Positions 1 to 13,764 of a stretch of DNA of 14,368 nucleotides are shown piece by piece. The notes under the pieces are model-generated. The model saw nothing but the letters and a program-made list of their open reading frames with translations. It ran no database searches and was not told the DNA's origin. The position numbers and the translations under genes are program-made. Every line of letters begins with the position of its first letter. The stretch's first letter is position 1. Source of the stretch: Armatimonadia bacterium (lineage in GTDB: Bacteria; Armatimonadota; Zipacnadia; Zipacnadales; UBA11051); the NCBI GenBank assembly GCA_039683575.1, contig JBDKRC010000086.1, forward strand, positions 1-14,368, given 5' to 3'.

Positions 1-1
1 T

Positions 2-466
2 GTCGCGGAGGGCATCGAGAGGCGGGTGACGTGGGGCGGACTGGACCTGGCGGAGGTGACGGCGGAGGAAATACGACTGCGAGTGCATATGACGCGCCCG
101 AATGCCGCGAGCACTACGCCCAGGCTCTATAGCTGGCAGGTGGCGACGCTACCGGTGCAGCGGCCAGTGCTGCAGGACCTGAGGGTTGAGGGGAAGGTTA
201 ACCCGGCAGGACTGCTGGACACGACGCCGGGGTTCACCTGGGGGTACTACGACCCGCAGGGCAAGGCGCAGGCGGCGTATGAGATGATCGTGGCTTCGAC
301 GAAGGAGAAGCTGGACAAGCACGAGGGAGACTTGTGGCAAAGCGGCGTGGTGGTGAGCACGGAGCAGAAGGCGGAGTACGCCGGTGTGCCGCTGGCGGAT
401 GAGACGACATACTTCTGGAAGGTGCGGGTCCAGAACGCGGAAGGGACGTGGTCCGAGGAATGGTAG
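2..466 (+). CDS. C-terminal part of a protein ending in an Ig/FN3-like domain resembling the N-terminal domain of GH78 alpha-L-rhamnosidases; probable virion decoration/accessory protein (5'-truncated by the window)
   Basis: Frame is open from position 2 to TAG at 464-466. The motif TPGFTW..DPQGKAQAAYEMIVAST...GDLWQSGVV...EYAG.PL..ETTYFWKVRVQN..G.WS matches the recognised pattern of that domain. Its stop overlaps the next ATG. Confidence 0.65.
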   Translation, partial: VAEGIERRVTWGGLDLAEVTAEEIRLRVHMTRPNAASTTPRLYSWQVATLPVQRPVLQDLRVEGKVNPAGLLDTTPGFTWGYYDPQGKAQAAYEMIVASTKEKLDKHEGDLWQSGVVVSTEQKAEYAGVPLADETTYFWKVRVQNAEGTWSEEW

Positions 467-1113
467 CCGAAGGTGTTTTTGCAACGGGGCTGGTGAGCTC
501 GTACTGCACGAGCGAGGACGTGTTCAAGGTGCTGCGCGGGTATGACTTGACGGGGTTCGGGGGCGAGGAGGGACTCGCGCCGAGGGTGCGCGAGCTGCTG
601 CCGATCACGATGAGCATGGTGGAATCGTACGCCGGGCGGGACTTCCGCCTCCACGCAGAGGAGACGGTCCGGGTTGATGGGACGGGGACGGATCGGGTGT
701 ATGTCATAGCGGCGGGCGTGCCGACCCCGGCGACGGTGCAGGGCGTGAAGGTGGACGGGCAGGAGGTCTCGGCAGGGGGGTGGCGGGCTTACCCGGCGAC
801 GGGGATGGTGCGGCTGACGCCTGAGGCCCGCCTGCGAACGTTCACGGCGGGTGTGCAGAATGTGGAGCTGGTGGTGGACTGGGGCTGGGAGACCACGCCG
901 GCAGAGGTGGCGCTGGTGCAGGCGAAGTTGACCGCGGCGGAGTTGCTGGCGGAGCTTGGCGGGGAAGGCGGGACCGTGGCGGAGACGCGGATCGGCGACT
1001 ACGCGGTGCGCTATGCCGAGGGCGGGAAGTTCGGCGGGGCGGTGCAGAGACTGTGCGCGGAGGCGGAGGCGGTGTTGCGGAGGTATGTGGCGGTGAGGAT
1101 GGCGGCGGTCTGA
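460..1113 (+). CDS. Phage head-tail adaptor/connector (HK97 gp6 / SPP1 gp15-like)
   Basis: ATG at 460 overlaps the upstream stop (GAGGAATGGTAG). Motifs YCTSEDV, VESYAGRDF, DGTG, F..GVQNVELVVDWGW..TPAEV, ETRIGDYAVRY and final L.RY are typical of adaptors; the operon position fits. Confidence 0.8.
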   Translation: MVAEGVFATGLVSSYCTSEDVFKVLRGYDLTGFGGEEGLAPRVRELLPITMSMVESYAGRDFRLHAEETVRVDGTGTDRVYVIAAGVPTPATVQGVKVDGQEVSAGGWRAYPATGMVRLTPEARLRTFTAGVQNVELVVDWGWETTPAEVALVQAKLTAAELLAELGGEGGTVAETRIGDYAVRYAEGGKFGGAVQRLCAEAEAVLRRYVAVRMAAV

Positions 1114-1154
1114 GGTTGGGGAAGGGCTGTCAGCATGCGGTAGCGCTGGCAGCC

Positions 1155-1238
1155 GGAATGGGGACAGACCCCGTTTTCGCAGGTCAGGAAGCGGTTGATG
1201 AGGGTTAGGCGGGCGAAAGCGGGGTCAGTCCCCATTCC
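1155..1238. repeat. Hairpin (REPIN/MITE-like) element, copy 1: 26-bp inverted arms around a 32-bp spacer
   Basis: GGAATGGGGACAGACCCCGTTTTCGC (1155-1180) and GCGAAAGCGGGGTCAGTCCCCATTCC (1213-1238) are reverse complements with 2 mismatches. Confidence 0.85.
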
Positions 1239-1261
1239 TGGCGGTGAGGTGTTGGGGTGCC

Positions 1262-1300
1262 GGGCCGGATGCCGACGGTGAGGCTGTCGGCATTCGGCCC
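1262..1300. repeat. Intergenic 17-bp inverted repeat
   Basis: GGGCCGGATGCCGACGG pairs with CTGTCGGCATTCGGCCC, with 2 G-T wobbles. Confidence 0.7.
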
Positions 1301-1326
1301 CTCCGTTGGGAGGTCGGTGTGCGAAC

Positions 1327-1351
1327 GGCGGGGTACGAGCCCCCGCCCTAC
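1327..1351 (-). repeat. GTAG-type REP-like palindrome
   Basis: Minus strand reads GTAG-GGCGGGG-GCTCGTA-CCCCGCC: a tetranucleotide followed by a GC-rich hairpin, the canonical REP layout. Confidence 0.7.
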
Positions 1352-1382
1352 AGTAGAGGATCTGGCAAGGTGAGGTAGCTGG

Positions 1383-1913
1383 ATGGTGGATGTGAACCTG
1401 ACGGGGCTATTGAGGCATGAGGTATGGATCGAGCGGCCTGAGGTGCGGATGGTGGCGGGGGATGTAGCCGTGGCGCGAGGCGTGAGGCAGGAGGGGCTGG
1501 TGCGGGCGCTGGTGAGGCCGTTGGACGCACGGGAGACGGCGGGGCTGCTCGGAAGGATGGAAGAGGCGCGGTATGCGGTGTACATGACGGCGGCGGAGGA
1601 CTTGGCGGAGGGGGATGTGCTGGCGCAGAGGCTGTGGGTGACGCGGCTGGCTGAGGCGGCAGCGGAGGGCGCGAGGGAGTTGCGGGTTGAGGAGGCGTTG
1701 GCGCGGCCCGGCGAGGAGATTGAGGTTGGGGGAGAGAGCGGCGTTGTGGCGGCAGTTGTGGACGAGGTAGTTAGTTTGGCGGAGGGGCTTGAGGAGAGAC
1801 ATGAGGCGGGGTGTGAGGTCGTGGGCGTGAGGCGGTTTGAGGTGCTGGGCGTGGAGGATGAAGGCGGGCAGGGGCACCATTGGCGGGTGTTGGTTCGGCC
1901 GCGGGTGGTGTAG
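1383..1913 (+). CDS. Probable head-closure/stopper (SPP1 gp16-like) protein with an inserted ~60-aa beta domain
   Basis: GAGGT RBS upstream of the ATG. N-terminal LLRHEVWIERP, central DLAEGDVL and C-terminal RRFEVLGVEDEGGQGHHWRVLV fit head-closure proteins; it directly follows the adaptor. Confidence 0.65.
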   Translation: MVDVNLTGLLRHEVWIERPEVRMVAGDVAVARGVRQEGLVRALVRPLDARETAGLLGRMEEARYAVYMTAAEDLAEGDVLAQRLWVTRLAEAAAEGARELRVEEALARPGEEIEVGGESGVVAAVVDEVVSLAEGLEERHEAGCEVVGVRRFEVLGVEDEGGQGHHWRVLVRPRVV

Positions 1914-1915
1914 GG

Positions 1916-2002
1916 GACGGCAGGGAACGGGGAACGGCAACGGCGGGCGGGCAGGATGCCCGCGCACCTACGGCAACGGCAAACGGCAAACGGCGGACGG
2001 CG
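1916..2002 (-). repeat. GTAG-type REP-like palindrome (1947-1971) embedded in short AACGGC(A) tandem repeats
   Basis: Minus strand reads GTAG-GTGC-GCGGGCA-TCC-TGCCCGC. The + strand flanks carry repeated aacggc/aacggca units. Confidence 0.7.
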
Positions 2003-2013
2003 AGAGGTGAGGG

Positions 2014-2694
2014 ATGGGTTTGGATATGTTTCATCAGAATGAGATCGCGCGGGCGCTGCGGATGGTGGTGTCGGGGGCGTCGCTGCTTGGCGCGGAGGTG
2101 TCCGGCGGTCAGGTCGTGACTGTGGCGTCGAACCGGCTGTTCCCGGCGGGGGCGCTGGTGCGGCTGGTGGATGACAACGATCAGGTTGAGGAGCATGTGG
2201 TGGCTGAGGCGCTCGGTGTGGACCAGGTGCGGCTGGAGGCGGAGGTTGTCGGGACCTTTGGACCGGCGGCGAAGGCGAGACTGCAGCTTCGTGAGGGGGC
2301 GGCGGCGCGCTTGAAGTGGGTCGCGCAGGGCCGGCCGGAGATGATGCCTGAGCCGAGGCGGGCGCAGCTTCCCGCGGTGGTGGTGGAGCCGGTGGGGATG
2401 AAGCAGCCAGCCAATGCGGGGACGAACCGCACCTATCAGCAGGAGTATGAGTTCGACGTCTTCTACATCCGGAAGGTCGCCGAGGGTGAGGAGGCGGGGG
2501 TGGAGTTGGGCGAGGAGGTCGCGGACCTGTTCAATCTGGTCATGAGCGACCCGTACCTGGAGGAGACTTGCTGGCATGCGCAGGTGACCGAGGTACAGAT
2601 GCGGCCACGCGAGGAGGAGGAGTTGCGGCGCAAGCAGGCGGGGGTGCAGGTGGTGCGGATGGGGGTGCTGGCGCAGAGGGCGGAGGTTTGGTAA
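2014..2694 (+). CDS. Probable tail terminator/tail-completion protein (lambda gpU-like fold) with an extra N-proximal beta domain
   Basis: LPAVVVEP...YEFDVFY...EEVADLFNLVMSDPYLEETC..AQVTEV resembles tail terminators; it lies immediately before the tail tube gene and has a GAGG RBS. Confidence 0.65.
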   Translation: MGLDMFHQNEIARALRMVVSGASLLGAEVSGGQVVTVASNRLFPAGALVRLVDDNDQVEEHVVAEALGVDQVRLEAEVVGTFGPAAKARLQLREGAAARLKWVAQGRPEMMPEPRRAQLPAVVVEPVGMKQPANAGTNRTYQQEYEFDVFYIRKVAEGEEAGVELGEEVADLFNLVMSDPYLEETCWHAQVTEVQMRPREEEELRRKQAGVQVVRMGVLAQRAEVW

Positions 2695-2756
2695 CGGCGT
2701 TGATGGTTGATCGTTGAATGGTAGAGGCGGAGAACGGAGAGGGTGCGGAGGCTGCC

Positions 2757-2836
2757 GCCCCTTCGGGGCTCACGCCTTGTGGCGCGGGCGACCAGGCCCT
2801 TGCGGACCTGGCTAGAGGCCGACGGCCCTTCGGGCC
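2757..2836. repeat. Composite palindromic repeat element of three short hairpins
   Basis: GCCCC-TTC-GGGGC, CCAGG-N10-CCTGG and GGCCC-TTC-GGGCC occur in series. Confidence 0.55.
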
Positions 2837-2844
2837 TGCAGAAG

Positions 2845-2955
2845 ACGGCGGAGGCGGGAACGGCGGAGGCGGGAACGGCGGAGGCGAGAACGGCGGAGGC
2901 GAGAACGCCGGAGGCGAGAACGCCGGAGGCGAGAACGGCGGAGGCGAGAACGCCG
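2845..2955 (+). repeat. VNTR: 7 full copies plus a partial copy of 15-bp ACG(G/C)CGGAGGCG(G/A)GA
   Basis: Units start at 2845, 2860, 2875, 2890, 2905, 2920 and 2935, with a partial unit at 2950. Confidence 0.95.
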
Positions 2956-2977
2956 CGGGAGCCGGGAAGACGAAGAA

Positions 2978-3002
2978 GTCGCGATCGGTGATCGCTCGTA
3001 CA
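2978..3002 (-). repeat. REP-like repeat family A, copy 1
   Basis: GTCGCGATCGGTGATCGCTCGTACA on the + strand; minus strand reads GTAC-GA-GCGATC-ACC-GATCGC-GAC. Near-identical copies lie at 5624 and 12555. Confidence 0.9.
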
Positions 3003-3058
3003 GATGAGACAAAGGCATTGGTCGCCGGAATGGCGGCGAAGACTGGGAGGTAGGTTGA

Positions 3059-3958
3059 ATGGGAGTGGCATTGGCGCAAGAGGGTGCGTTTGGGTTTGCT
3101 TTGCAGGCGGAGCAGGGGACCTATGTGGCTCCGACCGTTTGGTTGCCCTTGATGGGCGGCAAGCGCGGGGAGACGCTGCAGTGGAAGAAGAACTATGTGA
3201 CGCTGGACATGGCGGACGGCAATGACTTTGAGAGCCGGTACTTCGGCGTGGGTGAATGGGCCGAAGGCGAGATCGTGGTGCCGCTGGTGCCGGGAGCGCT
3301 GACAGCGCTATTGTCGTGGGTGCAGGACCGGGATCAGGACAATCAGGGCAAGTGGGCGTCGGTCGTGGTGGACTGCGTGAACGAGGTCAAGAAGATCACG
3401 GACTGCAAGGTGCGGCGGATGACGCTGGACCTGGTGAAGGGGCAGCCGGTGACGGCGACGCTTAGCGTGGCAGCGCTGAAGATGGAGAGCGGCGTGCCGG
3501 GCGCGGTTTCGATGCCGTCGGCAGCACCGTACCTGTACCGTGAGACCACGGTCCAAATCGCCAGCGGGGGCGACGCGCTGGAAGAGGATGTCAACTGCGA
3601 GCAGATCCGGATTGTGATCGAGAACATGGTCGAGGACCCGGCAGAGGGGCTGCGCCTGGTGAGTGGGAGCAACCCGCGGCACCTGTATAACCTCAGCGGC
3701 GTGCGGTGCCGAGGGGCTATCAGCCGGGACTTTGTGGATGCCGACCTGTATGCGGACTTTGCGGCTGGGCGGGAAGCGGCGCTGAGTATTGGGCTGGCGC
3801 GCGGGGCCAGTGCGGCGACGATCAGCCTGCCACGGGTGCTGTACACCGAAAGCGACATGGGGCTGCCGGGGTCGCACGAACAGCGGATCGTGGAGACGGT
3901 GCAATTCCTGGGGCTCGGGAGTGTCGATGGGCTGACGGCGCCGGTGGTGCTGGCGTAG
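3059..3958 (+). CDS. Phage major tail tube protein (siphovirus type)
   Basis: 299 aa with a GGAGG RBS. Motifs FGFALQAEQGTYVAPTVWLP, EGEIVVPL, DCKVRRMTL..VKGQPVTATLS, I.I.IEN, RG.ISRDF and TISLPRVLY match tube proteins; it sits between the terminator and the chaperone. Confidence 0.8.
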   Translation: MGVALAQEGAFGFALQAEQGTYVAPTVWLPLMGGKRGETLQWKKNYVTLDMADGNDFESRYFGVGEWAEGEIVVPLVPGALTALLSWVQDRDQDNQGKWASVVVDCVNEVKKITDCKVRRMTLDLVKGQPVTATLSVAALKMESGVPGAVSMPSAAPYLYRETTVQIASGGDALEEDVNCEQIRIVIENMVEDPAEGLRLVSGSNPRHLYNLSGVRCRGAISRDFVDADLYADFAAGREAALSIGLARGASAATISLPRVLYTESDMGLPGSHEQRIVETVQFLGLGSVDGLTAPVVLA

Positions 3959-4004
3959 GGGGAGGAACGACCGGAATTCAAAGGATGTAAGGATAGAGGC
4001 AAGG

Positions 4005-4466
4005 ATGGGAAGGATACGGCAGGAGTGGGTGGTGCTTGGGGAGGCTGGTTTGGGGGAGGTTGTGGAGGAGGGGCCGGTGGAGGTCGAGGGGTTCAGGCCT
4101 TGGGTGAGGGTGAGGGCGCTGACGGAGGCGGAGGCGCTGGAGAGGGAAGGGTTGGGGCTTTGGGAGGAGTATGAGCTGGTCGCCCGTGGGATTGAGGAGC
4201 CCGCCGTGTCGGTACGGCGGGCTTATGATTTGCGGGCGATGGCGGAGTATGACTACGCGCGCGCGGTGGTGGACTACTGCCTGCCGGAGATGACGGGTGA
4301 GGGTGTCCGGCAGAGGCTGGGGGCGGAGGCTACGGAGGCGGAGCGGGTTGAGTTCCTCGGGAGGATGCAGCCATGCCTCGCCGCCTGGGTGCATGAGGTC
4401 ATCGAGCGAGTGAACTGGCGGCGGCCGGAGCAGCGGGCGACGCTGGAGATGGCAAAAAAAAGCTGA
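4005..4466 (+). CDS. Tail assembly chaperone, short form (gpG-like)
   Basis: 153 aa, acidic/helical, directly after the tail tube. Contains WVRVRALT..E and ends in KKS on an A-rich slippery site, as is typical for this class. Confidence 0.75.
   Translation: MGRIRQEWVVLGEAGLGEVVEEGPVEVEGFRPWVRVRALTEAEALEREGLGLWEEYELVARGIEEPAVSVRRAYDLRAMAEYDYARAVVDYCLPEMTGEGVRQRLGAEATEAERVEFLGRMQPCLAAWVHEVIERVNWRRPEQRATLEMAKKS
4454..4461 (+). promoter_or_regulatory. Programmed -1 ribosomal frameshift site (A AAA AAA)
   Basis: GC-AAAAAAAA-GC-TGA is an A8 run in otherwise A-poor DNA, correctly phased as X XXY YYZ two codons before the stop. The -1 frame stays open to 4777. Confidence 0.8.
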
Positions 4467-4777
4467 AAGAGCTGGGAGCGGAGGGAAGGCTGCGCGTGGG
4501 GTTGGCGGAGACTGTGGGTGAGGTCGAGGTTGAGGGGCCGAGGCTGCGTGAGGGGCGGGACTTTGTGGGGCAGCAGCAGGCGGCGGCGCTGGGGGCGAGG
4601 CTGGGGGAAGTGAGGCGGAAGGTGCCGGCGTGGGCGCTTCTCGTGGTGCGGACGCTGCATGAGTTGCGGATGATGCGTGCGACGGGGCAACTGCCCGGCG
4701 GGAAGGCGTGGACGGAACAGGCGGCGTGGAAGGTGGAGCTGTGGGCGGTGTGGTGGATGGGGGCGGACGGGGAATGA
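4454..4777 (+). CDS. -1 frame extension of the tail assembly chaperone (gpT-like); fusion product 4005-4777 is about 257 aa
   Basis: Reads KKKLKELGAEGRLRVGLAE... into ORF 4496..4777. C-terminal GQLPGGKAWTEQAAWKVE resembles the LP..GG..DQP motif of gpT-like segments. Confidence 0.7.
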   Translation, partial: KKKLKELGAEGRLRVGLAETVGEVEVEGPRLREGRDFVGQQQAAALGARLGEVRRKVPAWALLVVRTLHELRMMRATGQLPGGKAWTEQAAWKVELWAVWWMGADGE

Positions 4778-4793
4778 AGCGGGAGAGGTACCC

Positions 4794-5450: not shown

Positions 5451-5461
5451 GGGCTGGTGGT

Positions 5462-5549
5462 CAAAATGGGGACGGAGCCTTCGCGCGATTACCAGGTGGT
5501 CAAGTTCTGGCGGGGGGAATTGGCGCGCGAGGGCTCCGTCCCCATTTTG
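5462..5549. repeat. Hairpin (REPIN/MITE-like) element, variant copy: 26-bp arms, 36-bp spacer
   Basis: CAAAATGGGGACGGAGCCTTCGCGCG and CGCGCGAGGGCTCCGTCCCCATTTTG differ by 1 mismatch as reverse complements. The outer ATGGGGAC...GTCCCCAT ends are shared with the other two copies. Confidence 0.85.
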
Positions 5550-5569
5550 GGCGAGGGGTGCTCGGGGAG

Positions 5570-5594
5570 CGCCCGACCGGAGTGTCGGGCGTAC
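5570..5594 (-). repeat. REP-like palindrome with a GTAC end
   Basis: CGCCCGAC-CGGAGT-GTCGGGCG-TAC. Confidence 0.55.
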
Positions 5595-5623
5595 ATCGTA
5601 GTGGCCACAGTTGGTCGTGGATG

Positions 5624-5648
5624 GTCGCGATCAGTGATCGCTCGTACA
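5624..5648 (-). repeat. REP-like repeat family A, copy 2
   Basis: GTCGCGATCAGTGATCGCTCGTACA; one loop substitution relative to 2978-3002. Confidence 0.9.
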
Positions 5649-5732
5649 GCTTTGCCTTTCATGGGGGAGGGGCCATGTTGAAGAGTGTTGAGGAACGGTT
5701 AGCTACGGTCGTTCACGGGTCGGCGAGGCCGG

Positions 5733-5814
5733 CGATGGGGACAGACCCCAAATTCGCATGAGGCTTGCTGCTGAACGGTAGGGTTGGTTGCGAAATTGGG
5801 GTCAGTCCCCATCG
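5733..5814. repeat. Hairpin (REPIN/MITE-like) element, copy 2: 26-bp arms, 30-bp spacer
   Basis: CGATGGGGACAGACCCCAAATTCGCA and TGCGAAATTGGGGTCAGTCCCCATCG; same arm cores as 1155-1238. Confidence 0.85.
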
Positions 5815-5855
5815 GCTTGTGAGTACTCGGCGGGAAACGGACGGTCGGGGCGCCC

Positions 5856-5913
5856 GCCCGGCTGGAAGCCGGGCTCAAGTGGCGATACCCTCGCGGCGGG
5901 ATGCCGCTCGCAC
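5856..5913 (-). repeat. Two REP-like palindromes
   Basis: GCCCGGCT-GGA-AGCCGGGC (5856-5874) and TCGCGGCGGGATGCCGCTCGCAC (5891-5913). The second reads GTGC-GAGCGGCATCCCGCCGCGA on the minus strand, a family A-like variant. Confidence 0.6.
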
Positions 5914-5978
5914 GACGAATGACACCGCTTGCTTGGGCTTAGGCCAGATCGCGAAGTGGCTTTGCATAGAGGGATGAG

Positions 5979-8879
5979 ATGATGGCGGAAGTGGTTCGGC
6001 TCGGGGATGTTTGTGGGCTGGCGGTGCGTGAGGCGCGGACTGTCTATGGAGTGGCGGAGTTCGTGGTGCCGGGGGGGACCTTGCGGGCGCGAGTGTATAA
6101 GGCGCGGACGCCTGATGTAGTGCTGGAAGGGGCGCAGGTCTGGCTGGTGCAGAGAATTGCGCCGGGGCAGGAGGGGGAGGACGAGCCGGAGCTACTGGAT
6201 CAGTATGTGTTGATGGTTGATGATCCATATTGGGGGCGGATGATCGCGCCGGAGGTGTTTGCCGCAGCGCCCTTTGAACAGACTTTTGTCATGGGGTACC
6301 GGGTTAGGGGGCGGATTCTGCATGATGGCGTGCCCGTGGAAGGGGCTAACGTCAGCCTCGAGGGTGTGCTTGAGGACGATCAGGCGCGGCAGAGCTTGTT
6401 CTGGGACAGTCTGGAGTACAACGAACTCATCTGGTCGCAGAAGTATGAGACTTACGTCGAGGGCTCCCAAGTATACGCGCCGATCATGACCAACGCCGAC
6501 GGGCGTTGGTCTTTCATTTGCCCAAAGGGGCACGGAGCGATCTACCAGCGAGAGGGCGACAAGCCGAGTTGGGTAAGTACGCTGGCGCGGAAGGTTGTGA
6601 GGCTTTGCGCGGTGTACCAGGGGCGGCGGGCGGAGCTGATGGAGGAGAACGAGGCGATCATCGATGTGCTTAGCGGCAAGCTTCGGGTCTATGGGGAGCC
6701 GGGGGCGATGGTGCGGGTGAGCACGCTCGACGAACGGGGCCAGAGCTGCGTGGTGGCTGAGGGCGGGACGCTGATCGAGGGGCTGCCAGGCGGTGAGCAC
6801 AACGTGGTGCAGTTCAAGCGGGGGCCGGGCGGAGACTGGGATGCGGAGTGGGGGTGCGCACGGCAGACGGTGACTGTTGTCGAGGGCGAGACGGTCAGCG
6901 TCAACATGGGCTTGATGGAGTACTACGACCCGGGCGCGGGGCTGATCGCCGGGCGGGTGTATGAGCGGATGGGGGTTCCGGCGAGCGGCGTGGCGATCGT
7001 GGCGGTTAACTTCGAGACGGGACAAATCGGGGAGACGCTGGCCACTACGGATGAGGGCGGTTACTGGGAAGTACAGATACCCGAGGAGGGGCTGGGCGGC
7101 GATCCCTGGGTCTGCGATGGCAAGTGGGGCTCGGTGCCGCTCCTGGGCTTCCCGTACTCGGATGTGGTGCTGGGGGCGCGGGCTTACTCGGCATGGCCGG
7201 CGATGTACCAGCCGGAGGCGTGGCGCAAGGGGCCTCGGGGGCATGCGAACTTCACGTATGTGCCGGAGGCAATGTGGCTCGTGGACAACGAGGACGGGAC
7301 GACGCATGAGACGGTGGAGACGGCGTATGGCGGGTGGGTGACGGAAGAGGCACTGCCGAAGTTCCGGTGTTTGAGCGTGGAGAAGTTGCTGGTGACGGGG
7401 CCGCAGCTCAAGGAGTATAGCCTGCACTCGAGCAGTGGCGTCGTACTGGGCAGTTGTTACCTCGACGCGCAGCCATTTGAGGACTATGAGACGCTGCCAG
7501 GACAATACCGGGCGGCGGGGTTCTACCCCGAGATGAAGCTGCTGATTGGCGGGAAGGTCAAGGGCTGGGCGGTGGTCGGTGATGAGGAACCGATTGGACT
7601 GGAGATGGCAGAGGCGCACCGGGTGGGGCTGGAGTTCGGGCGCCATGAGTGGTACACGGAGATCGGCGCGTGGAGGGACGCCGGCGAGCCGCCCGCGCCA
7701 ATAGAAGGGGAGGCGCCTGCGCCACCAGAGGGGGAGGCGGCGATATCCGAGGGGACTGGGCTCCAGAATGTGGTCGGGTGGACGGACCTGGTGTGCCCGT
7801 ACTGCGGAGGACCCGCGTGGCGGGACCCGGATGCGTTTGGGTACGTGCGAGGGTTCTGCTGCCAGTGCGCGGAGATGTTCGGGCCTGGAGACGCGATGGA
7901 TGCGCGGACGCACTTCACGCTGCCGACGGTGCGGGGCGCGACGGGCTGGGGGACGCGGGCGCGTCTGGTGATGCGGAGCGGGGGCTGCAAGAGCTATGGC
8001 TTCAAGTGGCACTGGCGGCCTGAGGTCTATGATGAGACTGAGGACTTCCTGGTGCAGGGCGGGCCGGGGCAGGCTACCAATGCGCCGCGGTGGTTTGCGC
8101 GGCATGTGGATGAGATGGGTGATGGGAAGGGGTTCGGGGGGTATGACGCCAGTACATCTCCCCCATTCACGGCGGGACATGATCTGGGCTACTTCGAGGG
8201 CTTGCCGGAGGTGCAGCGGGGGCTGGGGCTGACGCAGATGAAGCTGCTATTTCCGTGGGGATACGAGCAGGCAGAAAAAGTGACGCTTGAGGTTGACTGC
8301 CGGCGGGTGGATTACCAGGTTGAGACGCTGACGGTGAAGATACCGGCCGGGGTGAAGGGGCCGGACGAAGAGAAGCCGCTGAGTGACGTGGTGAAGGTGT
8401 CGGGGGCGCATAAGTGGGCAGCGGAGAAGAAGACGACACCCTTTGCGGGGACGGGACTGTACCGGGAAGTGCTGAGGGTGCGGCTGGTTGAGCCGGTGGG
8501 GGCGGAATGCAAGTTCAGGATTGTCAATGATGCGCCGTTTATGGCACCGACGGCGGGAGTGGTGGTCGAGGAGCGGAAGGCGGCGCTGGTGGCGCTACAG
8601 ATCGGCGGCGGGGGCAAGACTAGCGGACCGCACCTGCTTGATGATGGGATTGGGCAGGTGTTTGTGTTCTACGAGCGCGACGGGCAGATCTGGATGCGGC
8701 GGCGCGAAGGGCTGCCTGGAGGGTGGCTGGAGCCGAAGCAGGTGACGCAGGAGGGGGAAAACCGGGAGCCGTGCGCGGAGAAGGATCGGAGCGGAAGGTT
8801 GCGGCTGTGGTGGGAGCGCGAGGGCGGGCTGAAGAATGCCGTGTCGGCGGATGACGGCGAGAGCTGGGTGGAGGTGTAG
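5979..8879 (+). CDS. Large (966 aa) putative tail-tip/adsorption protein: two carboxypeptidase-regulatory/prealbumin-like beta-sandwich domains, a CxxC...CxxC motif and C-terminal propeller-like blades with an Asp-box
   Basis: VRGRILHDGVPVEGANVSL...TNADGRWSF and IAGRVYERMGVPASGVAIVA...TTDEGGYWEV; CPYC-x17-CCQC; terminal SADDGESW. Codon usage matches the neighbouring genes. Confidence 0.6.
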   Translation: MMAEVVRLGDVCGLAVREARTVYGVAEFVVPGGTLRARVYKARTPDVVLEGAQVWLVQRIAPGQEGEDEPELLDQYVLMVDDPYWGRMIAPEVFAAAPFEQTFVMGYRVRGRILHDGVPVEGANVSLEGVLEDDQARQSLFWDSLEYNELIWSQKYETYVEGSQVYAPIMTNADGRWSFICPKGHGAIYQREGDKPSWVSTLARKVVRLCAVYQGRRAELMEENEAIIDVLSGKLRVYGEPGAMVRVSTLDERGQSCVVAEGGTLIEGLPGGEHNVVQFKRGPGGDWDAEWGCARQTVTVVEGETVSVNMGLMEYYDPGAGLIAGRVYERMGVPASGVAIVAVNFETGQIGETLATTDEGGYWEVQIPEEGLGGDPWVCDGKWGSVPLLGFPYSDVVLGARAYSAWPAMYQPEAWRKGPRGHANFTYVPEAMWLVDNEDGTTHETVETAYGGWVTEEALPKFRCLSVEKLLVTGPQLKEYSLHSSSGVVLGSCYLDAQPFEDYETLPGQYRAAGFYPEMKLLIGGKVKGWAVVGDEEPIGLEMAEAHRVGLEFGRHEWYTEIGAWRDAGEPPAPIEGEAPAPPEGEAAISEGTGLQNVVGWTDLVCPYCGGPAWRDPDAFGYVRGFCCQCAEMFGPGDAMDARTHFTLPTVRGATGWGTRARLVMRSGGCKSYGFKWHWRPEVYDETEDFLVQGGPGQATNAPRWFARHVDEMGDGKGFGGYDASTSPPFTAGHDLGYFEGLPEVQRGLGLTQMKLLFPWGYEQAEKVTLEVDCRRVDYQVETLTVKIPAGVKGPDEEKPLSDVVKVSGAHKWAAEKKTTPFAGTGLYREVLRVRLVEPVGAECKFRIVNDAPFMAPTAGVVVEERKAALVALQIGGGGKTSGPHLLDDGIGQVFVFYERDGQIWMRRREGLPGGWLEPKQVTQEGENREPCAEKDRSGRLRLWWEREGGLKNAVSADDGESWVEV

Positions 8880-8881
8880 CG

Positions 8882-9187: not shown

Positions 9188-9191
9188 CTGG

Positions 9192-9227
9192 CCCTCACCC
9201 CCGGCCCCTTTCCCAGAAGGAGAGGGG
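9192..9227 (+). repeat. Intergenic CCCTCACCCC...CCCTCTCCC...GGAGAGGGG-type palindromic repeat
   Basis: CCCTCACCCCCGGCCCCTTTCCCAGAAGGAGAGGGG resembles a widespread bacterial extragenic repeat, with stem CCCCTTTCC/GGAGAGGGG. Confidence 0.65.
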
Positions 9228-9310
9228 CGCAAGAGGCATTCAGGCCATCTGGTGCCCTGCGGTCGGGCGCTTGAGAGGACAAGATGGCGACGTGGAAGTG
9301 AGGTGGGTAT

Positions 9311-11599
9311 ATGAGCAGGAGTTACCCGATTGCGCGGGTGCGCGTTTATGAGGCCGGGCAGGAGGCCTATGCCCGGTATGACGGGTTTGGACGATACGAT
9401 GTGGCGGGGGATTTGTTTGCGGAGCAGGCGGTGCGGGTCAGTGAGGTTGATCCGGCGGAGCTTGGGATCTGGAGCGGGCAGGGATACCGCGCGCCGATGC
9501 CGGCGGCCATGCATGTTCGGGCGGGTGGGCTCAATACTGTGATGTGCCGGCCGTTTCTGGATACGACACAGGCGATCGGCCTGGGGCACTTTGCGCCGGT
9601 GGCGGGGACGTGGCGGGGGCTGAAGGGGCTGGGACTGGGGCAGGAGGTGAAACTCTACCAGTCGGATGGCACCAGCAACCGCGTGACGGGGATGGAGAGC
9701 AGGTTTGCGCTGCCGCATAACCCGCTGTTTGCGCTGTCATTGTATCGGGCGGAGCCGGGACCTGAGCATGACTGGGGACAGCCGCCCTATACCGAGATCC
9801 ACTTCGGGATTGGCGAGCAGGATGAGTGGGCGCTGGTGATACCTTACGGGGCACCGATGTTTGTGATGCGGCGGCGCGGCGGGCAGTGGACGCGGGTGCA
9901 TGACAAAGAGAAGGCAGTGCGGTGGCCGACGCTGGAAGGTGTGGCGAAGGGGCAGCGGCTGTTTCTGTGGATCGGGGCACTGCGAGGACGGCTGGCGATT
10001 TCAACGGACGGGTTCGCGGATGATGTGTGGGTGTGCGAGACGCCGGAGCCGCTGAGCATCAAGAGCAGCAAGGTGACGCTCTGGCATAATGCAGGGCAGT
10101 GGGCGTTTTCGTTCCTGCCGATCAAGATGACGCCGGCGAAGGTGTACGGGCCCGTGATCGAGACGGGATATCCCAGCGTGGCCTCGAAGGGCGAGGTGAC
10201 GCTGGAGGGGCGGATGATCCCTGTGGTGGATGATGCGGGGGCGATGCTGTCGGCACCGCTGCTGCTCGATGACAGCCTGGCACGGGAGGGACTGACCGAG
10301 ACGCAGCGGTCGTGGCAGGTGCAGATGGCGCCACACCGGCATATTGAGGAAGGCGTGGGCGTGGACCCGGATACGGGGCAGGCGGTGGACTTTGAGACGT
10401 GGGTGTCGCCTGAGTGGCTGGCTACGCAGGTGGCGCAGGAGGCTGAGGTGGCGAAGTGCGCGGCGCCAGTGTACCACGACCTGAGTACCGATGCCATTGC
10501 GGTGCACGGGGAGCATGCGCAGGACAAGGCGACGGCGCGGTATCAGGTGGCTCTCGACAACCAGCGCGGCCAACACGCGGAACTCAGGGAGTACAGGCGG
10601 GCCAGCGTGGCAGTTGGGTGGAAGATGAGCGATGGGACGGAGGCGCTGGTGGAGGTGATTGACGGGCAGGTAGTGGAGCCGCCGGTGGTGGCCATGCCCG
10701 GAGGGACCAGCGAGACGCGGATCAGTATTCTGGATCCGATGCTGCGACTCAGGGATGAGAAGGCGGACGGGCGGACGCCGGTGTTTGACGGGTGGCCGGT
10801 GGTGAAGGTGATCCGGTGGGTGCTGGCGCGGTGCGGGGTGCCGGTGACGGAGCAGGACCTTGAGGACACCGGGACGGTGCTGAGCAGCGGGACCGTGGAG
10901 CAGCCGGTCTGGCAGGTGGAGCCGGGCCGGTCGTGGGTGGAGTTTCTGCAGGAGGTTGCACGGTTCGACTACAACGCGGCGATCTGGTTCGATGAGGTGG
11001 GGGCGTTCCGCAAGACCTGCCGGTATTGCCGACAGAAGCGGACGGCGGCGGAGGTGACGCGTCATGACGGGACGCTTGAGGGGGCGTGCGACAACACCGT
11101 GCGCTGGGAGATGTACACGCGAGGGAAGGTGGCCCCGAATCCGCAGGCCGCGGGTGAGGTGCTGGATTTGCGGCGGACGCGGAAGAGCCTGGCGCCGGAG
11201 GAGTATGCCAACTATGTCGTGGTGAGCGGCATGGATGAGGCGGGGCGGCCCGTGAAGGCCGTGACGTTTGATGCGGCTTCCCTGTATGACGCGGCGTCGG
11301 AGCAGTACGTGGGTTGGCGCAAGATGGAGGTGGTGACACTGCCGGGGCGGAGTTCACAGGAGGCGGTCAACCGGATAGCCGCGGAGAGACTGGCGGAGTT
11401 GTCGGCGAGGCCAGAGCATGTGCGGATGGTGACGCCGCTGTTGCCCGAGGCGCGAGTCGGGCAGGTGCTGAGGATCAGCGGCGGGGAGAAGATGGGCGTG
11501 AACGGGCAGTGCTACCGGATCGAGGCGGTGCGGCACCAGGTGGAGCGGAGGCAGGATGAGGTGGCGACGACGGTGGTGGAGGCGAAGTGGCTGGGATAG
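9311..11599 (+). CDS. Baseplate hub / tail-tip protein (gp27/gpD-like fold in the C-terminal half) with an N-terminal beta-sandwich region
   Basis: 762 aa with a GAGGTG RBS. Hub-like motifs: VALDNQRG, WVEFLQEVA....AIWFDEVGAF, ANYVVVSG, AVNRIAAERLAELS....VRMVTP..PEARVGQVLRI, YRIEAVRH. Confidence 0.7.
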   Translation: MSRSYPIARVRVYEAGQEAYARYDGFGRYDVAGDLFAEQAVRVSEVDPAELGIWSGQGYRAPMPAAMHVRAGGLNTVMCRPFLDTTQAIGLGHFAPVAGTWRGLKGLGLGQEVKLYQSDGTSNRVTGMESRFALPHNPLFALSLYRAEPGPEHDWGQPPYTEIHFGIGEQDEWALVIPYGAPMFVMRRRGGQWTRVHDKEKAVRWPTLEGVAKGQRLFLWIGALRGRLAISTDGFADDVWVCETPEPLSIKSSKVTLWHNAGQWAFSFLPIKMTPAKVYGPVIETGYPSVASKGEVTLEGRMIPVVDDAGAMLSAPLLLDDSLAREGLTETQRSWQVQMAPHRHIEEGVGVDPDTGQAVDFETWVSPEWLATQVAQEAEVAKCAAPVYHDLSTDAIAVHGEHAQDKATARYQVALDNQRGQHAELREYRRASVAVGWKMSDGTEALVEVIDGQVVEPPVVAMPGGTSETRISILDPMLRLRDEKADGRTPVFDGWPVVKVIRWVLARCGVPVTEQDLEDTGTVLSSGTVEQPVWQVEPGRSWVEFLQEVARFDYNAAIWFDEVGAFRKTCRYCRQKRTAAEVTRHDGTLEGACDNTVRWEMYTRGKVAPNPQAAGEVLDLRRTRKSLAPEEYANYVVVSGMDEAGRPVKAVTFDAASLYDAASEQYVGWRKMEVVTLPGRSSQEAVNRIAAERLAELSARPEHVRMVTPLLPEARVGQVLRISGGEKMGVNGQCYRIEAVRHQVERRQDEVATTVVEAKWLG

Positions 11600-11612
11600 G
11601 AGGCGAAGCGGG

Positions 11613-11819
11613 TTGGATATTGTGCAGGTGACGCGGCGGATCGTGGACCAGCAGGTGCGGCCGGGGCAGAGGGCTGGGACGACGGTGGCGGGGACCGTGC
11701 CGCAGGCGGGGGCGATGCGGGGCAGCGGGAAGTTCCTGAAGCGCGTGGCGGCGGACGGGACGGTGCGGGAGAGCGGGGTCTACGGCAGGGCGCGGTACGG
11801 ACGGAGTTGCTGGAGCTAG
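11613..11819 (+). CDS. Small basic hypothetical tail-associated protein (68 aa)
   Basis: AGGAGG (11598-11603) lies 9 nt before TTG at 11613. It fills the gap between the hub and fibre genes and ends in YG.ARYG..CWS. Confidence 0.6.
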   Translation: MDIVQVTRRIVDQQVRPGQRAGTTVAGTVPQAGAMRGSGKFLKRVAADGTVRESGVYGRARYGRSCWS

Positions 11820-11843
11820 AGATGATCGTGGAGCGTGAATGGC

Positions 11844-12545
11844 ATGGCGGGGACGACTGAGTTCTATGGGTTGACGACGGGCGTTGTGACCGACGATTTC
11901 GTCGAGGCGGATCACCATAATCGGGTGGCGGATACGCTGGACCGGGTGTTGGGGAGTGTGCTGACGAAGCTGCTGGCGCCGGGCGTGTATGCGGGATGGG
12001 AGGTAGACCTGCTGGGGCAGGTTGGGTCTGGTGAAGGGCTGGTCGGCGGGTGTTGGTGCCGGACGGTGGCAGCGCAGGCGATTGAGGGGTTGACGGCAGG
12101 GGCGACCAACTATGTGTTTGGGCGGGTGGATGCGGGTTCTGCATCACAGGGCACGGTGAGCTTCTTCGCCCAGCTTAGTGCGGTGAAGCCGGCGGGGGCG
12201 GTGCTGCTCGGGAGTGTCGAGGTCGATGGTGCCGGGCAAGTCGTGAGCGCCAATTGCACGCTGCCGAGCGTGGACCGGCATTGCGTGCGGATGGAACTGG
12301 CGCCCTTGAGCGGGAGCGGGATGGTGACGGCGGTGGCGCCGAATGAGGAGTTCGTGGCGCAGGTGTCGCATGGCGCGACGATGCGGGTGCCAGGGGCAAT
12401 AGGGTTTGCGTCTAGTAGCCCGGATTTCACGTGGGAATTGGGCGAGACGTGGCGCGGGGATGGGTTCGCGGTGAAGGGGCGAAACAACGGGGCGGTAGAG
12501 GCGGATTTCGTCTATACGTGGACGCGGCAGGGGTTCGTGGAGTAG
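11844..12545 (+). CDS. Putative tail fibre / receptor-binding-associated protein (233 aa)
   Basis: N-terminal MAGTTEFYGL...DHHNRVADTLD resembles fibre attachment segments. GVYAGWEV...VGSGEGLVGG...TNYVF...P.GAVLLGSV is typical of minor tail proteins. Confidence 0.6.
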   Translation: MAGTTEFYGLTTGVVTDDFVEADHHNRVADTLDRVLGSVLTKLLAPGVYAGWEVDLLGQVGSGEGLVGGCWCRTVAAQAIEGLTAGATNYVFGRVDAGSASQGTVSFFAQLSAVKPAGAVLLGSVEVDGAGQVVSANCTLPSVDRHCVRMELAPLSGSGMVTAVAPNEEFVAQVSHGATMRVPGAIGFASSSPDFTWELGETWRGDGFAVKGRNNGAVEADFVYTWTRQGFVE

Positions 12546-12554
12546 CCGGTGATA

Positions 12555-12652
12555 GTCGCGATCGGTGATCGCTCGTACGGGACGATATCGAGAGATAGAA
12601 GCGACGGCGATCGTTGGTCGACGATCATCGCGGTCTGGTGACCGCTCCTACA
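12555..12652 (-). repeat. REP cluster: family A copy 3 (12555-12578), a short hairpin (12609-12626) and a GTAG REP (12628-12652)
   Basis: GTCGCGATCGGTGATCGCTCGTAC; GATCGT-TGGTCG-ACGATC; minus strand TGTAGGAGCGGTCACCAGACCGCGA, a classic GTAG-GAGCG REP. Confidence 0.85.
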
Positions 12653-12689
12653 GGCAGCCGTGGGTGGCGTTACTGAAGAAGGTATAGAT

Positions 12690-13028
12690 ATGAGGGAGAT
12701 CATTCGTCTCTGGGCCGGAGTGGGTCCAGAGACGAAACTGTTTCTGACGTTGACGATGGCGGGCGTTCTGGGGGCGCTGGCTACTACGGCGCTGGACCGC
12801 AAGCCGCTGGTCATGCCGCGAGTACGGCATGGGGCGCTGTACCTGGGTTTCCTGGGGACGCTGATCACCTCGGTAGTGGCGGCTCATGCGGTGGATCACG
12901 GGTTCAGCACGGCGCTGGTGGCGGCAGTGTGCGGGGGAGCGACACTACGGCGACTGAAGGCGGAGATCGACCGAGGATTTGACCGCGAACAGCGGCGATT
13001 GGAGGGCGAGCGCCGGGATGGGGACTAA
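12690..13028 (+). CDS. Small multi-pass membrane protein, DUF4257-like (holin/antiholin candidate)
   Basis: AGVLGAL...LVMPR....LYLGFLGTLI..VVAA pattern, about 3 hydrophobic segments and a charged C-terminal tail. Confidence 0.6.
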   Translation: MREIIRLWAGVGPETKLFLTLTMAGVLGALATTALDRKPLVMPRVRHGALYLGFLGTLITSVVAAHAVDHGFSTALVAAVCGGATLRRLKAEIDRGFDREQRRLEGERRDGD

Positions 13029-13371
13029 CGAATGGATGGTGATCGTGCCAGCGGCGGCGGAGGGGCTGCTGCTGACGGCTTGCCTGCTGGTGTGGATGAA
13101 GCTGCGGACGCTGCGGGTGAGCGGGGTGTGCGAGCTGACGCTGGGGGCGATCACGGTGGACGCAGCGGTGCAGAGCTGGCAGCTTTGGCTGCGGGCGGGC
13201 GGCCCGGCAGGTGTGGCGTGGCTGCTGCACGCGATGCTGTCGTACGTGATGGTGTATGTGCTGTACCGGCTGGGAGAGTTGCTGTGGCGACTGCGGGAGC
13301 AGAAAGAGGGGGCTTGTGCGGCGAAACGCTGGGTTGGGCCAGCGACGCCGGAGCAGATAGAGGTCGGATGA
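13018..13371 (+). CDS. Hypothetical membrane protein (117 aa, about 3 TM segments)
   Basis: ATG overlaps the 3' end of the upstream gene; three hydrophobic stretches; located in the lysis module. Confidence 0.6.
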   Translation: MGTNEWMVIVPAAAEGLLLTACLLVWMKLRTLRVSGVCELTLGAITVDAAVQSWQLWLRAGGPAGVAWLLHAMLSYVMVYVLYRLGELLWRLREQKEGACAAKRWVGPATPEQIEVG

Positions 13372-13396
13372 GACCAGGCTGAGGAGGAGAAGGAGT

Positions 13397-13693
13397 ATGG
13401 GTGATGTGATCGGATCGGTACTGCGGGATGTTGTGAGCCCGACGCTGGGCGCGGGGCTGATGGTGGCGGGGTTCTCGTTTGTGCGCGAGTGGGCGCGGCA
13501 GATGAAGGATGAGCGGAAGAGGAAGCTCGTTTTGGCGCTGGTGCGGGCGGCAGAGCAGCTCTATGGTCCCGGTAAGGGCGAGGCGAAACGGCGGTATGTG
13601 CGGGAGAAGGCCAAGCAGAGCGGCCTGGGTGAGGTGGCTCGCGAGCAGGTTGAGGCGGCGGTCTATGAGCTGACACAGGAAGCGGCGCAGTAG
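13397..13693 (+). CDS. Phage holin, LL-H family
   Basis: One N-terminal TM segment followed by LVRAAEQLY...KGEAKR.YV...QVEAAVYEL, the family signature. AAGGAG/GAGGAG RBS upstream. Confidence 0.85.
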   Translation: MGDVIGSVLRDVVSPTLGAGLMVAGFSFVREWARQMKDERKRKLVLALVRAAEQLYGPGKGEAKRRYVREKAKQSGLGEVAREQVEAAVYELTQEAAQ

Positions 13694-13712
13694 CCACAGC
13701 GGCGTAAGAGAA

Positions 13713-13749
13713 GGGCCGCCACCTCGGAGTGAGGTGGCGGCTTATTTCT
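13713..13749. terminator. Probable bidirectional intrinsic terminator
   Basis: Perfect 11-bp stem GCCGCCACCTC/GAGGTGGCGGC (13715-13741) with a 5-nt loop, followed by TTATTTCT on + and a pyrimidine tract on -. It lies between convergent genes. Confidence 0.75.
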
Positions 13750-13764
13750 GCGTATAGGAGCGGC

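Follow-up and report, generated by a model that had tools for sequence, protein, structure and literature searches.

The window analyzed here is the whole of contig C86 (14,368 bases; GenBank JBDKRC010000086.1), which belongs to a metagenome-assembled genome (MAG) of an Armatimonadota bacterium. The genome carries the working label G000 (6.23 Mb, 352 contigs, 63.5% G+C, completeness of 96%, contamination of 2%). A preliminary description of the window had read its genes as the neck, tail, and holin part of a long-resident, selected particle system similar to a gene transfer agent (GTA). We found that the window contains the distal 13.7 kb of a ~23-kb head-and-tail gene cluster, which spans the two contigs C186 and C86.

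Gene content of the head-and-tail cluster

The open reading frames (ORFs) of the window lie on the same strand without internal stops from position 2 to 13693, which bears out the claim of an intact neck-tail-holin operon. For gene picking, we used a codon-usage model trained on the long ORFs of G000. From the first ORF to the chaperones, the model picks 26-466, 448-1113, 1383-1913, 2014-2694, 3059-3958, 4005-4466, and 4496-4777, and from the tip to the lysis genes it picks 5979-8879, 8882-9187, 9311-11599, 11835-12545, 12660-13028, 12979-13371, and 13397-13693; the convergent host gene 13765-14367 is picked as well. The ORF picked as 26-466 is open back to the first bases of the contig (2-466), with no earlier stop. 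The end of C186 (9,833 bases) overlaps the start of C86 by an exact 127 nt, and the reading frame of this first ORF is continuous across the join. Position 1, with which the system as first described begins, falls within a gene that continues from C186. The opposite end of C86 joins contig C57.

C186 codes for homologs of five proteins of G002, a genome of the same genus, each in one unbroken alignment. The large terminase, portal, prohead protease, and HK97-type capsid are 62%, 72%, 52%, and 83% identical to those of G002, and C186 holds the first 1,023 residues of the ~1,130-aa head-module protein whose C-terminal end opens the window. The G002 homolog of the latter has 1136 aa and matches PF13385 and PF25788. 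The head proteins of G002 match PF04860, PF04586, PF05065, and the PHROG terminase profiles, and the terminase of G000 was located through its G002 homolog. For the portal, the nearest NCBIfam model is portal_PBSX (E value of 7e-41, below the model's cut-off). A scaffold-like protein accompanies the terminase, the portal, the S78 prohead protease, and the HK97-fold capsid. The terminase, portal, protease, and capsid genes of C186 thus give the element a head. The preliminary description had asked for head genes upstream that are free of replication, repressor, and integrase genes, and this is the picture given by C186 and by the relatives. As it had also proposed, the element is head-bearing and not a headless F-type tailocin, the head genes being contiguous with the tail. 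No gene in terminase orientation, as a candidate small terminase, precedes the terminase in G002, G019, G024, and G028. The first 50 bases of C186 are a tandem repeat of the heptamer CAGGGGT, ~400 nt upstream of the terminase match, and the assembly broke there.

The neck and tail genes are listed in Table 1. The 221-aa adaptor candidate has no Pfam or PHROG match and is 40 to 62% identical to its homologs in 7 of the 7 relatives compared. The 176-aa neck protein, without a family match in Pfam, PHROGs, and NCBIfam, would be the stopper judging from its position. The terminator-like protein is 36 to 66% identical in seven relatives. The NCBIfam scan gave no match for any window protein. The tail tube has a single match within G000, and its relatives are 56 to 81% identical. 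Just ahead of the stop of ORF 4005-4466, a run of eight A residues (4454-4461) holds the heptamer A AAA AAA (4454-4460), and the −1 frame is open to 4777, in line with the programmed frameshift described earlier. A stretch of the T part, REGxDF...LPGG...W..ELW, is kept in relatives. Seven of eight genomes compared have the frameshift arrangement, in which the G protein terminates in ..AKK/VKK; it is absent in G028. The features of a siphovirus-type noncontractile tail are present, namely, the tube, G/G-T by −1 frameshift, and a central hub, and no sheath family was matched in the Pfam and PHROG scans of the window proteins.

The 218-codon ORF at the tape-measure position (4794-5450), to which attention had been drawn for its shortness, is real, and in all eight genomes compared a short ORF of 143 to 281 aa follows the G/G-T pair. 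These ORFs are Arg or Pro rich and have no family match in the library scans. Their C termini are alike (..RLELVR, ..RLELSR, ..RLDLAR, and ..SIDLAR). We regard the product of 4794-5450 as a real but fast-evolving and probably extended protein; its position alone would make it the tail-length ruler.

The AlphaFold2 (AF2) model of the 762-aa hub has a pLDDT of 87.5 and a pTM of 0.84. Its Foldseek matches are Mu gp44, T4 gp27, VgrG, and siphophage and tailocin hubs, with E values of 2e-14 to 1e-9 and TMt of 0.64 to 0.75. The 966-aa tail-tip protein gave a poor AF2 model (pLDDT of 59), good for residues 1 to 400 only and below 50 for residues 496 to 752, and its Foldseek matches are low-TM, domain-level ones to immunoglobulin (Ig)/CnaB pilin-like, adhesin, and sialidase folds. 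From its position, the protein would have a distal-tail and receptor-binding role; we do not claim a distal-tail-protein fold, since the model is poor and the matches are domain level only. PDB sequence-profile searches with the hub and the 966-aa protein returned chance-level matches only. Residues 606 to 630 of the 966-aa protein (7794-7868) contain a CxxC...CxxC motif whose four Cys do not vary among 12 homologs; this pattern suggests a zinc ribbon in a region that AlphaFold could not model. The homologs in G004, G023, G033, and G037 have an extra helical N-terminal domain of ~125 aa (stretches L116, ~1300-1700; L023, 2781-3152; L027, 17991-18344), which is under purifying selection (ratio of nonsynonymous to synonymous substitution rates [dN/dS] of 0.13, G033/G037). 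The homolog of the 101-aa BNR protein in G004 has been relocated between the terminase and the portal (stretch L026, 9373-9678).

The 236-aa protein behind the hub has no family match in Pfam, PHROGs, and NCBIfam. The cluster encodes three small membrane proteins, including the holin. Of the two small hydrophobic proteins ahead of the holin, the 122-aa one has homologs in five of seven relatives and the 130-aa one in G002 only. The operon ends, as described before, at a terminator common to it and a host gene, a two-way hairpin between the holin and a GFO/IDH/MocA oxidoreductase that shares 86.5% identity with its positional counterpart in G002.

Six gaps interrupt the cluster in the window (1114-1382, 1914-2013, 2695-3058, 5451-5978, 9188-9310, and 12546-12659). 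The earlier claim that such gaps hold host-type repeats stands for gap sequences that match 13 to 124 other contigs of G000; it does not stand for the exceptional gap 9188-9310, with two weak matches outside the window. Three palindromic units have 26-nt arms with 92 to 96% complementarity, and the remainder of gap 1114-1382 matches 123 other G000 contigs. The palindromic family has a unit of ~85 to 90 nt, with the 26-nt arms around ATGGGGAC.G.CCCC. A second dispersed repeat, a motif of 24 to 28 nt on 32 to 36 contigs, has window copies at 2974-3001, 5620-5647, and 12551-12578. The clusters of G033 and G037 also hold host dispersed repeats, of a different sequence. Host repeats filling the gaps would fit a long residence of the cluster.

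The ORF 2718-3053 inside one of the gaps is probably not a gene, given its codon score of 0.096 per codon versus 0.2 to 0.33 for its neighbors. It has no tblastn match in the loci of seven relatives, and G002 has ~150 nt at the corresponding place. The tandem repeat at 2830-2970 translates as GGGEN/GGGGN repeats. In base composition, C86 has the highest G-over-C skew (0.336) of the 352 contigs of G000. The skew of the cluster is 0.19 to 0.27 in G002, G004, G019, G024, and G028 and ~0.01 in G023 and G033. We dropped G-C skew as a mark of foreign origin because the clusters of genus g12 are unskewed and some host flanks, with genes on the other strand, are skewed.

Table 1. Features of the window and the evidence for their assignment
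Feature	Position	Strand	Evidence or remark
C-terminal 154 aa of ~1,130-aa head-module protein (Laminin_G_3 + Ig_Rha78A_N)	2..466	+	PF25788, E 9.5e-20; remainder on C186
Head-tail adaptor/head-completion protein, 221 aa	448..1113	+	Language-model clusters HCP/gp6-like connector, 0.97 (lead only)
Palindromic host-type repeat unit, in gap 1114-1382	1155..1238	.	26-nt arms, 92% complementary; matches 12 other contigs
Neck protein, 176 aa	1383..1913	+	Syntenic homologs, 30-43% identity, 7 relatives
Tail-terminator-like protein, 226 aa	2014..2694	+	Language-model clusters Phage_tail_terminator_5, 0.91 (lead only)
Gap with seven 15-nt tandem repeats (2830-2970) and host dispersed repeat (2974-3001)	2695..3058	.	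ORF 2718-3053 inside
Tail tube protein, 299 aa	3059..3958	+	PF18906, E 9.7e-15, 55.3 bits vs cut-off of 27
Tail assembly chaperone G, 153 aa	4005..4466	+	Slippery heptamer A AAA AAA at 4454-4460; homologs in 6/7 relatives
T part of G-T, −1 frame extension	4454..4777	+	−1 frame open across slippery site
ORF at tape-measure position, 218 aa	4794..5450	+	Position after G/G-T; 19.7% Arg; ends ..RLELVR
Gap of 528 nt, holding two palindromic units (5462-5549, 5733-5814) besides further host dispersed repeats	5451..5978	.	Units match 37 and 19 other contigs
Tail-tip protein, 966 aa, tandem Ig/CnaB-like beta-sandwich domains, BNR-like C terminus	5979..8879	+	PF13620, 3e-4, below cut-off
BNR/Asp-box protein, 101 aa	8882..9187	+	PF02012, 8e-5, below cut-off; 41-62% identity in relatives
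Tail hub (gp27/Mu gp44/VgrG-like), 762 aa	9311..11599	+	phrog_1887 'tail protein', 3e-7
Small conserved ORF, 87 aa, overlaps hub gene end	11556..11819	+	tblastn, 32-49% identity, 5/7 relatives
Tail-tip or fiber candidate, 236 aa	11835..12545	+	44-59% identity, 7 relatives
Two overlapping small hydrophobic proteins	12660..13028 (122 aa), 12979..13371 (130 aa)	+	DUF4257, 2.5e-4, below cut-off
Holin, 98 aa	13397..13693	+	phrog_6918, 2.8e-7; PF09682, 0.0024, below cut-off
Two-way terminator hairpin, 11 pairs (9 G-C)	13715..13741	.	Between convergent holin and host gene; each strand has a T-rich tail
Host GFO/IDH/MocA oxidoreductase, C-terminal 200 aa, flank outside element	13765..14367	-	PF22725, 1e-23

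Synteny, distribution, and co-divergence with the host

We inspected the gene lists and flanks of the cluster in G002, G004, G019, G023, G024, G028, and G033/G037, all of which are draft bins. The order from terminase to holin in seven long-contig genomes is that of C186 plus the window, and its synteny extends over five families of the order, which is the conservation that had been anticipated. In G002, where the cluster lies on a 72-kb contig, the ORFs from terminase to holin are all structural, lytic, or small and unassigned, and no regulator or replication family was matched in the cluster.

The flanks of the cluster differ among these genomes. Upstream lie hydrogenase subunits and DUF1559 in G002, DUF1559 in G004, M6 and S8 peptidases in G019, an M16 peptidase in G024, and acetolactate synthase in G028. 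Downstream, the holin of G002 is followed by PG_binding_1 and then the GFO oxidoreductase; a response regulator is found in G004, Jag-YidC in G019, YidC in G024, and an amidase and then unknown genes in G028. The downstream flank is common within a genus (G000/G002 and G023/G033/G037) and within a family (YidC in G019/G024, which are of different genera). The cluster of G008 is rearranged. It is spread over at least three contigs (C35, C21, and C48; L117-L120), with DUF1559 pilin-like host genes inserted between the capsid and the large head protein and between the terminator and the tube. About 17 kb separate the small BNR gene from the hub, and C48 has tube fragments next to its G/G-T genes. 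Full-length alignments are still obtained for the tube, the hub, and the large head-module protein of G008.

The hallmarks of an integrated temperate prophage (integrase with att sites, repressor, and replication genes) were not found next to the structural genes in these genomes, which are draft bins. No integrase family was matched in the window by Pfam, and none was linked to the cluster in the relatives examined. For a tyrosine recombinase 3.4 kb upstream of the G023 cluster, we weighed the role of a phage integrase but decided against it, as the protein looks like a host XerC/D-type enzyme. A 67% identical copy lies on an unlinked G000 contig, and no match to the recombinase was found in the G037 sequence examined, which includes ~4.9 kb upstream of the terminase. 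The flanks of six genomes contain no direct repeat of >13 nt that could be att-like, and the repeats are not above background. No tRNA gene was found in 11 sequences scanned, the window included. No xre-type regulator was found beside the cluster in the relatives examined. The boundary of the window is as first described, without an integrase family or att-like repeats, and no tRNA gene was found there.

We investigated the distribution of the cluster with the tube and hub as queries. The tube was found in 21 of the 41 nearest genomes and in 38 of the 67 genomes of the whole Armatimonadota order. The hub was found in 47 of the 67 (27 of 34 among high-quality genomes), and 49 of the 67 have one or the other. 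Some tube-negative genomes are hub-positive, and because several genomes without the tube hold the hub, some of the absences are bin gaps. In a sample of 401 genomes of the phylum, the tube was present in 28 of 45 within the order and in 0 of 356 outside it. As unions of tube and hub matches with G000 left out, the cluster is found in 17 of 18 genomes of family f6, 15 of 17 of f4, 11 of 15 of f1, 4 of 7 of f5 (one a weak partial match), and the single genome of f3 (1/1). Full-length matches number one per genome; where a genome has several matches, these represent pieces from separate contigs.

A search of 5.8 billion proteins gave 142 relatives of the tube. The 120 listed are 54 to 96% identical, and those among them that are named are all Armatimonadota or unclassified "bacterium." The tube had no match in 50,697 GenBank phage records, where the best capsid match has 34% identity. 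The cluster also occurs on three contigs listed as viral in IMG/VR, two of which correspond to MAG contigs that we had already found.

The hub tree was compared with a host tree based on a single marker, RpoB, both by quick maximum likelihood. We used 33 of the 38 genomes with a full-length hub and left partial hubs unused; G051, G064, G063, G007, and G053 were left out because they have no RpoB. In G003 and G022 (L137 and L121), which have a high G+C content, the antisense frame of the entire rpoB is stop free, which misleads automatic strand choice. The trees have 22 of 30 splits in common, whereas in 2000 label shuffles the number in common averaged 0.19 and never exceeded 3. The patristic distances are correlated (Mantel r of 0.73), a value reached by 0 of 2000 permutations. 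The eight conflicting splits are local, some of them well supported in one tree. Cluster and host trees are congruent to this extent, as the preliminary description had foreseen.

Selection was measured between two pairs of genomes. G033 and G037 are ~89 to 91% identical in DNA over the cluster and its flanks. Over 13 gene segments at dS of 0.24 to 0.46, their dN/dS is 0.07 to 0.25, below 1 as expected of a selected cluster; the flanking usp gene has 0.25 and the linked amidase 0.20. Between G000 and G002, where dS is 0.65 to 1.0 and near saturation, dN/dS is 0.19 for the capsid, 0.17 for the portal, 0.15 for the tube, and 0.32 for the hub, and most other cluster genes have 0.24 to 0.53. No stops occur inside full-length tube or hub matches across the order, and the 762- and 966-aa ORFs are kept open across families in which RpoB is 64 to 73% identical.

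A probable domesticated particle system and its alternatives

We read the cluster as probably a particle system of the GTA kind that derives from a siphovirus, has been domesticated, and is inherited vertically. Its gene content, boundaries, synteny, clade restriction, co-divergence, and purifying selection are as observed above. It would be a property of the host because it is structural only, bounded by host genes, present in one full-length copy, near-saturated in two families, and restricted to one order, and also because of its host-like tree, the purifying selection, and the host repeats and genes inside it. It likely goes back to the capture of a siphovirus-like phage in an ancestor from which most families of the order descend. 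All checks run but one agreed with the earlier reading of a long-resident, selected, GTA-like system, which is supported in this form.

From the genes, we infer particle formation, tail length, DNA cargo, and a benefit to the host. A host signal would turn the operon on in a subset of cells. The terminase, without a cluster-encoded small terminase, would fill heads with little sequence preference and so mostly with host DNA, and a short noncontractile tail would then be joined to the head. Cells would be lysed by the holins and a peptidoglycan hydrolase, which is linked in other genomes and unlinked in G000. The released particles may attach to neighboring cells by their lectin-like and Ig-like domains and deliver DNA in the fashion of a GTA.

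A more specific version, which we put forward only tentatively, is that of a working GTA of independent origin. A single capture would have taken place after the split of the basal family, and the cluster would have been kept through the radiation of five families. Host DNA would be packaged without a dedicated small terminase, heads and tips studded with lectin and Ig domains would find the recipients, and the tape measure (143 to 281 aa) would have converged on the solution of the Rhodobacter capsulatus GTA (RcGTA). The absence of a small terminase gene in the cluster is suggestive with regard to random packaging of host DNA.

Several observations weigh against this picture. Presence in relatives, one of the checks proposed earlier, gave a divided answer. 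It holds for 49 of 67 genomes and two near-saturated families, but it is patchy, as five genomes of 89 to 96% completeness and two families lack the cluster. The tube, hub, and capsid were all not found in these five (G006, G009, G012, G013, and G018), and families f2 and f7 have 0 of 4 genomes each. On a rooted RpoB tree with 53 rows (two outgroups and 51 of the order's 67 genomes, the other 16 being unused), the cluster-less f7 is basal, and there are at least eight changes of presence, which we read as one gain and seven absences. The absences include f2, which is nested among carriers, and two genomes that are 77% and 85% complete. Since every genome is a metagenome bin, the absences and the counts of single copies should be taken as soft. 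Host-tied phages can also mirror host trees. Three small ORFs have dN/dS of 0.69, 0.89, and 1.3 between G000 and G002, and the cluster genes evolve faster than the flanking host genes (0.12 to 0.33). No RNA sequencing run was found that contains the window stretch; the best match among sequencing runs, all kept as assembled contigs, covers 0.32 of the sampled words.

Single genes add to these points. The PF03354 (TerL_ATPase) profile search of G000 gave no match and did not recognize the terminase, which is recognized by PHROG profiles only (E value of 4e-10). The ORF at the tape-measure position shows no tblastn similarity in relatives, even inside the genus, so conservation is not detectable beyond the last residues. 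Its codon score of −0.012 per codon, versus 0.2 to 0.33 in its neighbors, is atypical of the host, and between the ~90% identical G033 and G037 it differs in length by 63 aa, with a dN/dS of 0.37. There are also signs of erosion. No peptidoglycan hydrolase follows the holin in G000, while one is present in G002, G023, G028, and G033. The 125-aa N-terminal domain of the 966-aa homologs has no counterpart anywhere in G000, and the genus of the window is without it. G028 is without the G chaperone, and G015 and G008 have tube fragments, some with stops. On contigs C97 (7264-8088) and C40 (25335-25988), G000 encodes unlinked homologs (39 to 46% identity) of the proteins located behind the holin in other genomes, PG_binding_1 and Amidase_2, and we regard these homologs as candidates for the lysis enzyme missing from the cluster.

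The main rival is a PBSX-like killer particle, that is, a defective phage with head and tail that may take up host DNA and acts as a bacteriocin rather than in gene transfer. All the evidence for domestication fits it equally well. The portal's nearest NCBIfam model, at an E value of 7e-41 below its cut-off, is portal_PBSX, and the large, variable lectin, Ig, and BNR proteins on head and tail would suit strain-specific targeting. Yet no sheath family was matched in the Pfam and PHROG scans, so the tail is not of the contractile kind, and no xre-type regulator was found beside the cluster in the relatives examined. Killing could do without a head, a terminase, and a portal, but the genes for them belong to the best conserved ones (dN/dS of 0.19 for the capsid and 0.17 for the portal between G000 and G002). 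We consider a killer particle the less likely reading, with a real if minor chance of being correct.

An active virus and a dead remnant both appear unlikely. The former would be a strictly host-bound temperate or pseudolysogenic siphophage that still moves as a virus, with its lysogeny and replication genes elsewhere or too divergent to see. Every structural and lysis gene that a phage needs is present, several small ORFs have no assigned function, and composition is distinct, as the G-C skew of C86 is the highest of 352 contigs. IMG/VR lists three such contigs as viral, but these show the same cluster, and two are MAG contigs already found. Host genes adjoin both ends in five long-contig genomes, and no cluster integrase, att-like repeat, or tRNA was found in the sequences examined. 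With one full-length copy per genome, presence in 17 of 18 and 15 of 17 genomes of two families and in 0 of 356 outside the order, a flank kept within genera and one family, and host repeats and genes inside the cluster, a mobile siphophage is very unlikely. A decaying, functionless prophage remnant, kept by short elapsed time or by hitch-hiking, would account for the endolysin lost in G000, the domain of the 966-aa protein lost in the genus, the G chaperone missing in G028, the fragments with stops in G015 and G008, and the loss of the entire cluster in several lineages, but it is highly improbable, as the 762- and 966-aa ORFs are open across families with RpoB identities of 64 to 73% and dN/dS is 0.07 to 0.25 at unsaturated dS, and a neutral remnant would not stay open so far.

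Significance and comparison with known systems

Armatimonadota are poorly studied, mostly uncultured, and common in wastewater, digesters, and sediments. To our knowledge, only a handful of independently domesticated GTAs are known, and experimental knowledge is almost all alphaproteobacterial. The cluster would be a second deep, order-level case of co-divergence with the host, which would allow a test of which features of GTAs are convergent necessities. Candidates are the short tape measure, packaging that has lost its specificity, lysis genes that are unlinked, and decorated heads. If it is a working GTA, it would be the first found in Armatimonadota and would point to a route of gene exchange in the phylum that has not been searched for. 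Virus-prediction pipelines file such contigs as viruses, which would inflate prophage counts for the phylum. Literature searches for GTAs in Armatimonadota/Armatimonadetes, Planctomycetes, and Zipacnadia returned, among the records and excerpts they yield, no paper describing such an element in the phylum. In PMC10290634, which names Zipacnadia, a term search of the text apart from its supplement gave no occurrence of the words phage, prophage, viral, and gene transfer.

With HK97-like siphophages, the cluster shares the order terminase, portal, protease, capsid, neck, tube, G/GT, putative tape measure, tip, and lysis. It differs from them in having no integrase, repressor, replication genes, or att sites, in an ORF at the tape-measure position that is several times shorter than usual, and in the host repeats and genes inside it; the nearest phage capsids are 34% identical, and the tube is unmatched. 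F-type tailocins are alike in having tube, G/G-T, hub, and tip in siphovirus order, followed by holin genes. They are without head genes, whereas in this cluster the tail genes are contiguous with those for terminase, portal, protease, and capsid. PBSX is likewise a chromosomal, nonpropagating head-and-tail cluster conserved in a host group, and portal_PBSX is the best portal model. The PBSX tail is contractile, whereas the cluster gave no match to a sheath or other contractile-tail family and has no adjacent regulators, its portal is below the model cut-off, and its conservation spans families of an order.

By sequence, the cluster is not of the RcGTA family. Beyond generic portal, protease, and HK97 capsid matches, no family is common to the two, the tube here belonging to PF18906, and no GTA-named family was matched in the Pfam, PHROGs, and NCBIfam scans of the window proteins. 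The main cluster of RcGTA is ~15 kb. The cluster described here is in another phylum and is ~23 kb, with holins inside it and no small terminase gene seen at its head. In its arrangement it resembles RcGTA in several respects. Both are chromosomal clusters of a head and a siphovirus-type tail with structural genes only, and both are inherited with the host over a whole clade under purifying selection. The lysis enzyme is unlinked in RcGTA and in G000. The head of RcGTA carries extra proteins as decoration, and the head module here includes a lectin/Ig protein. Finally, the tape measure of RcGTA is very short, as the putative one here would be. According to PMC7296036, g11 of RcGTA consists of 113 + 83 + 20 residues (~216) and goes with a 49-nm tail, and the ORF at the corresponding position here has 218 aa.

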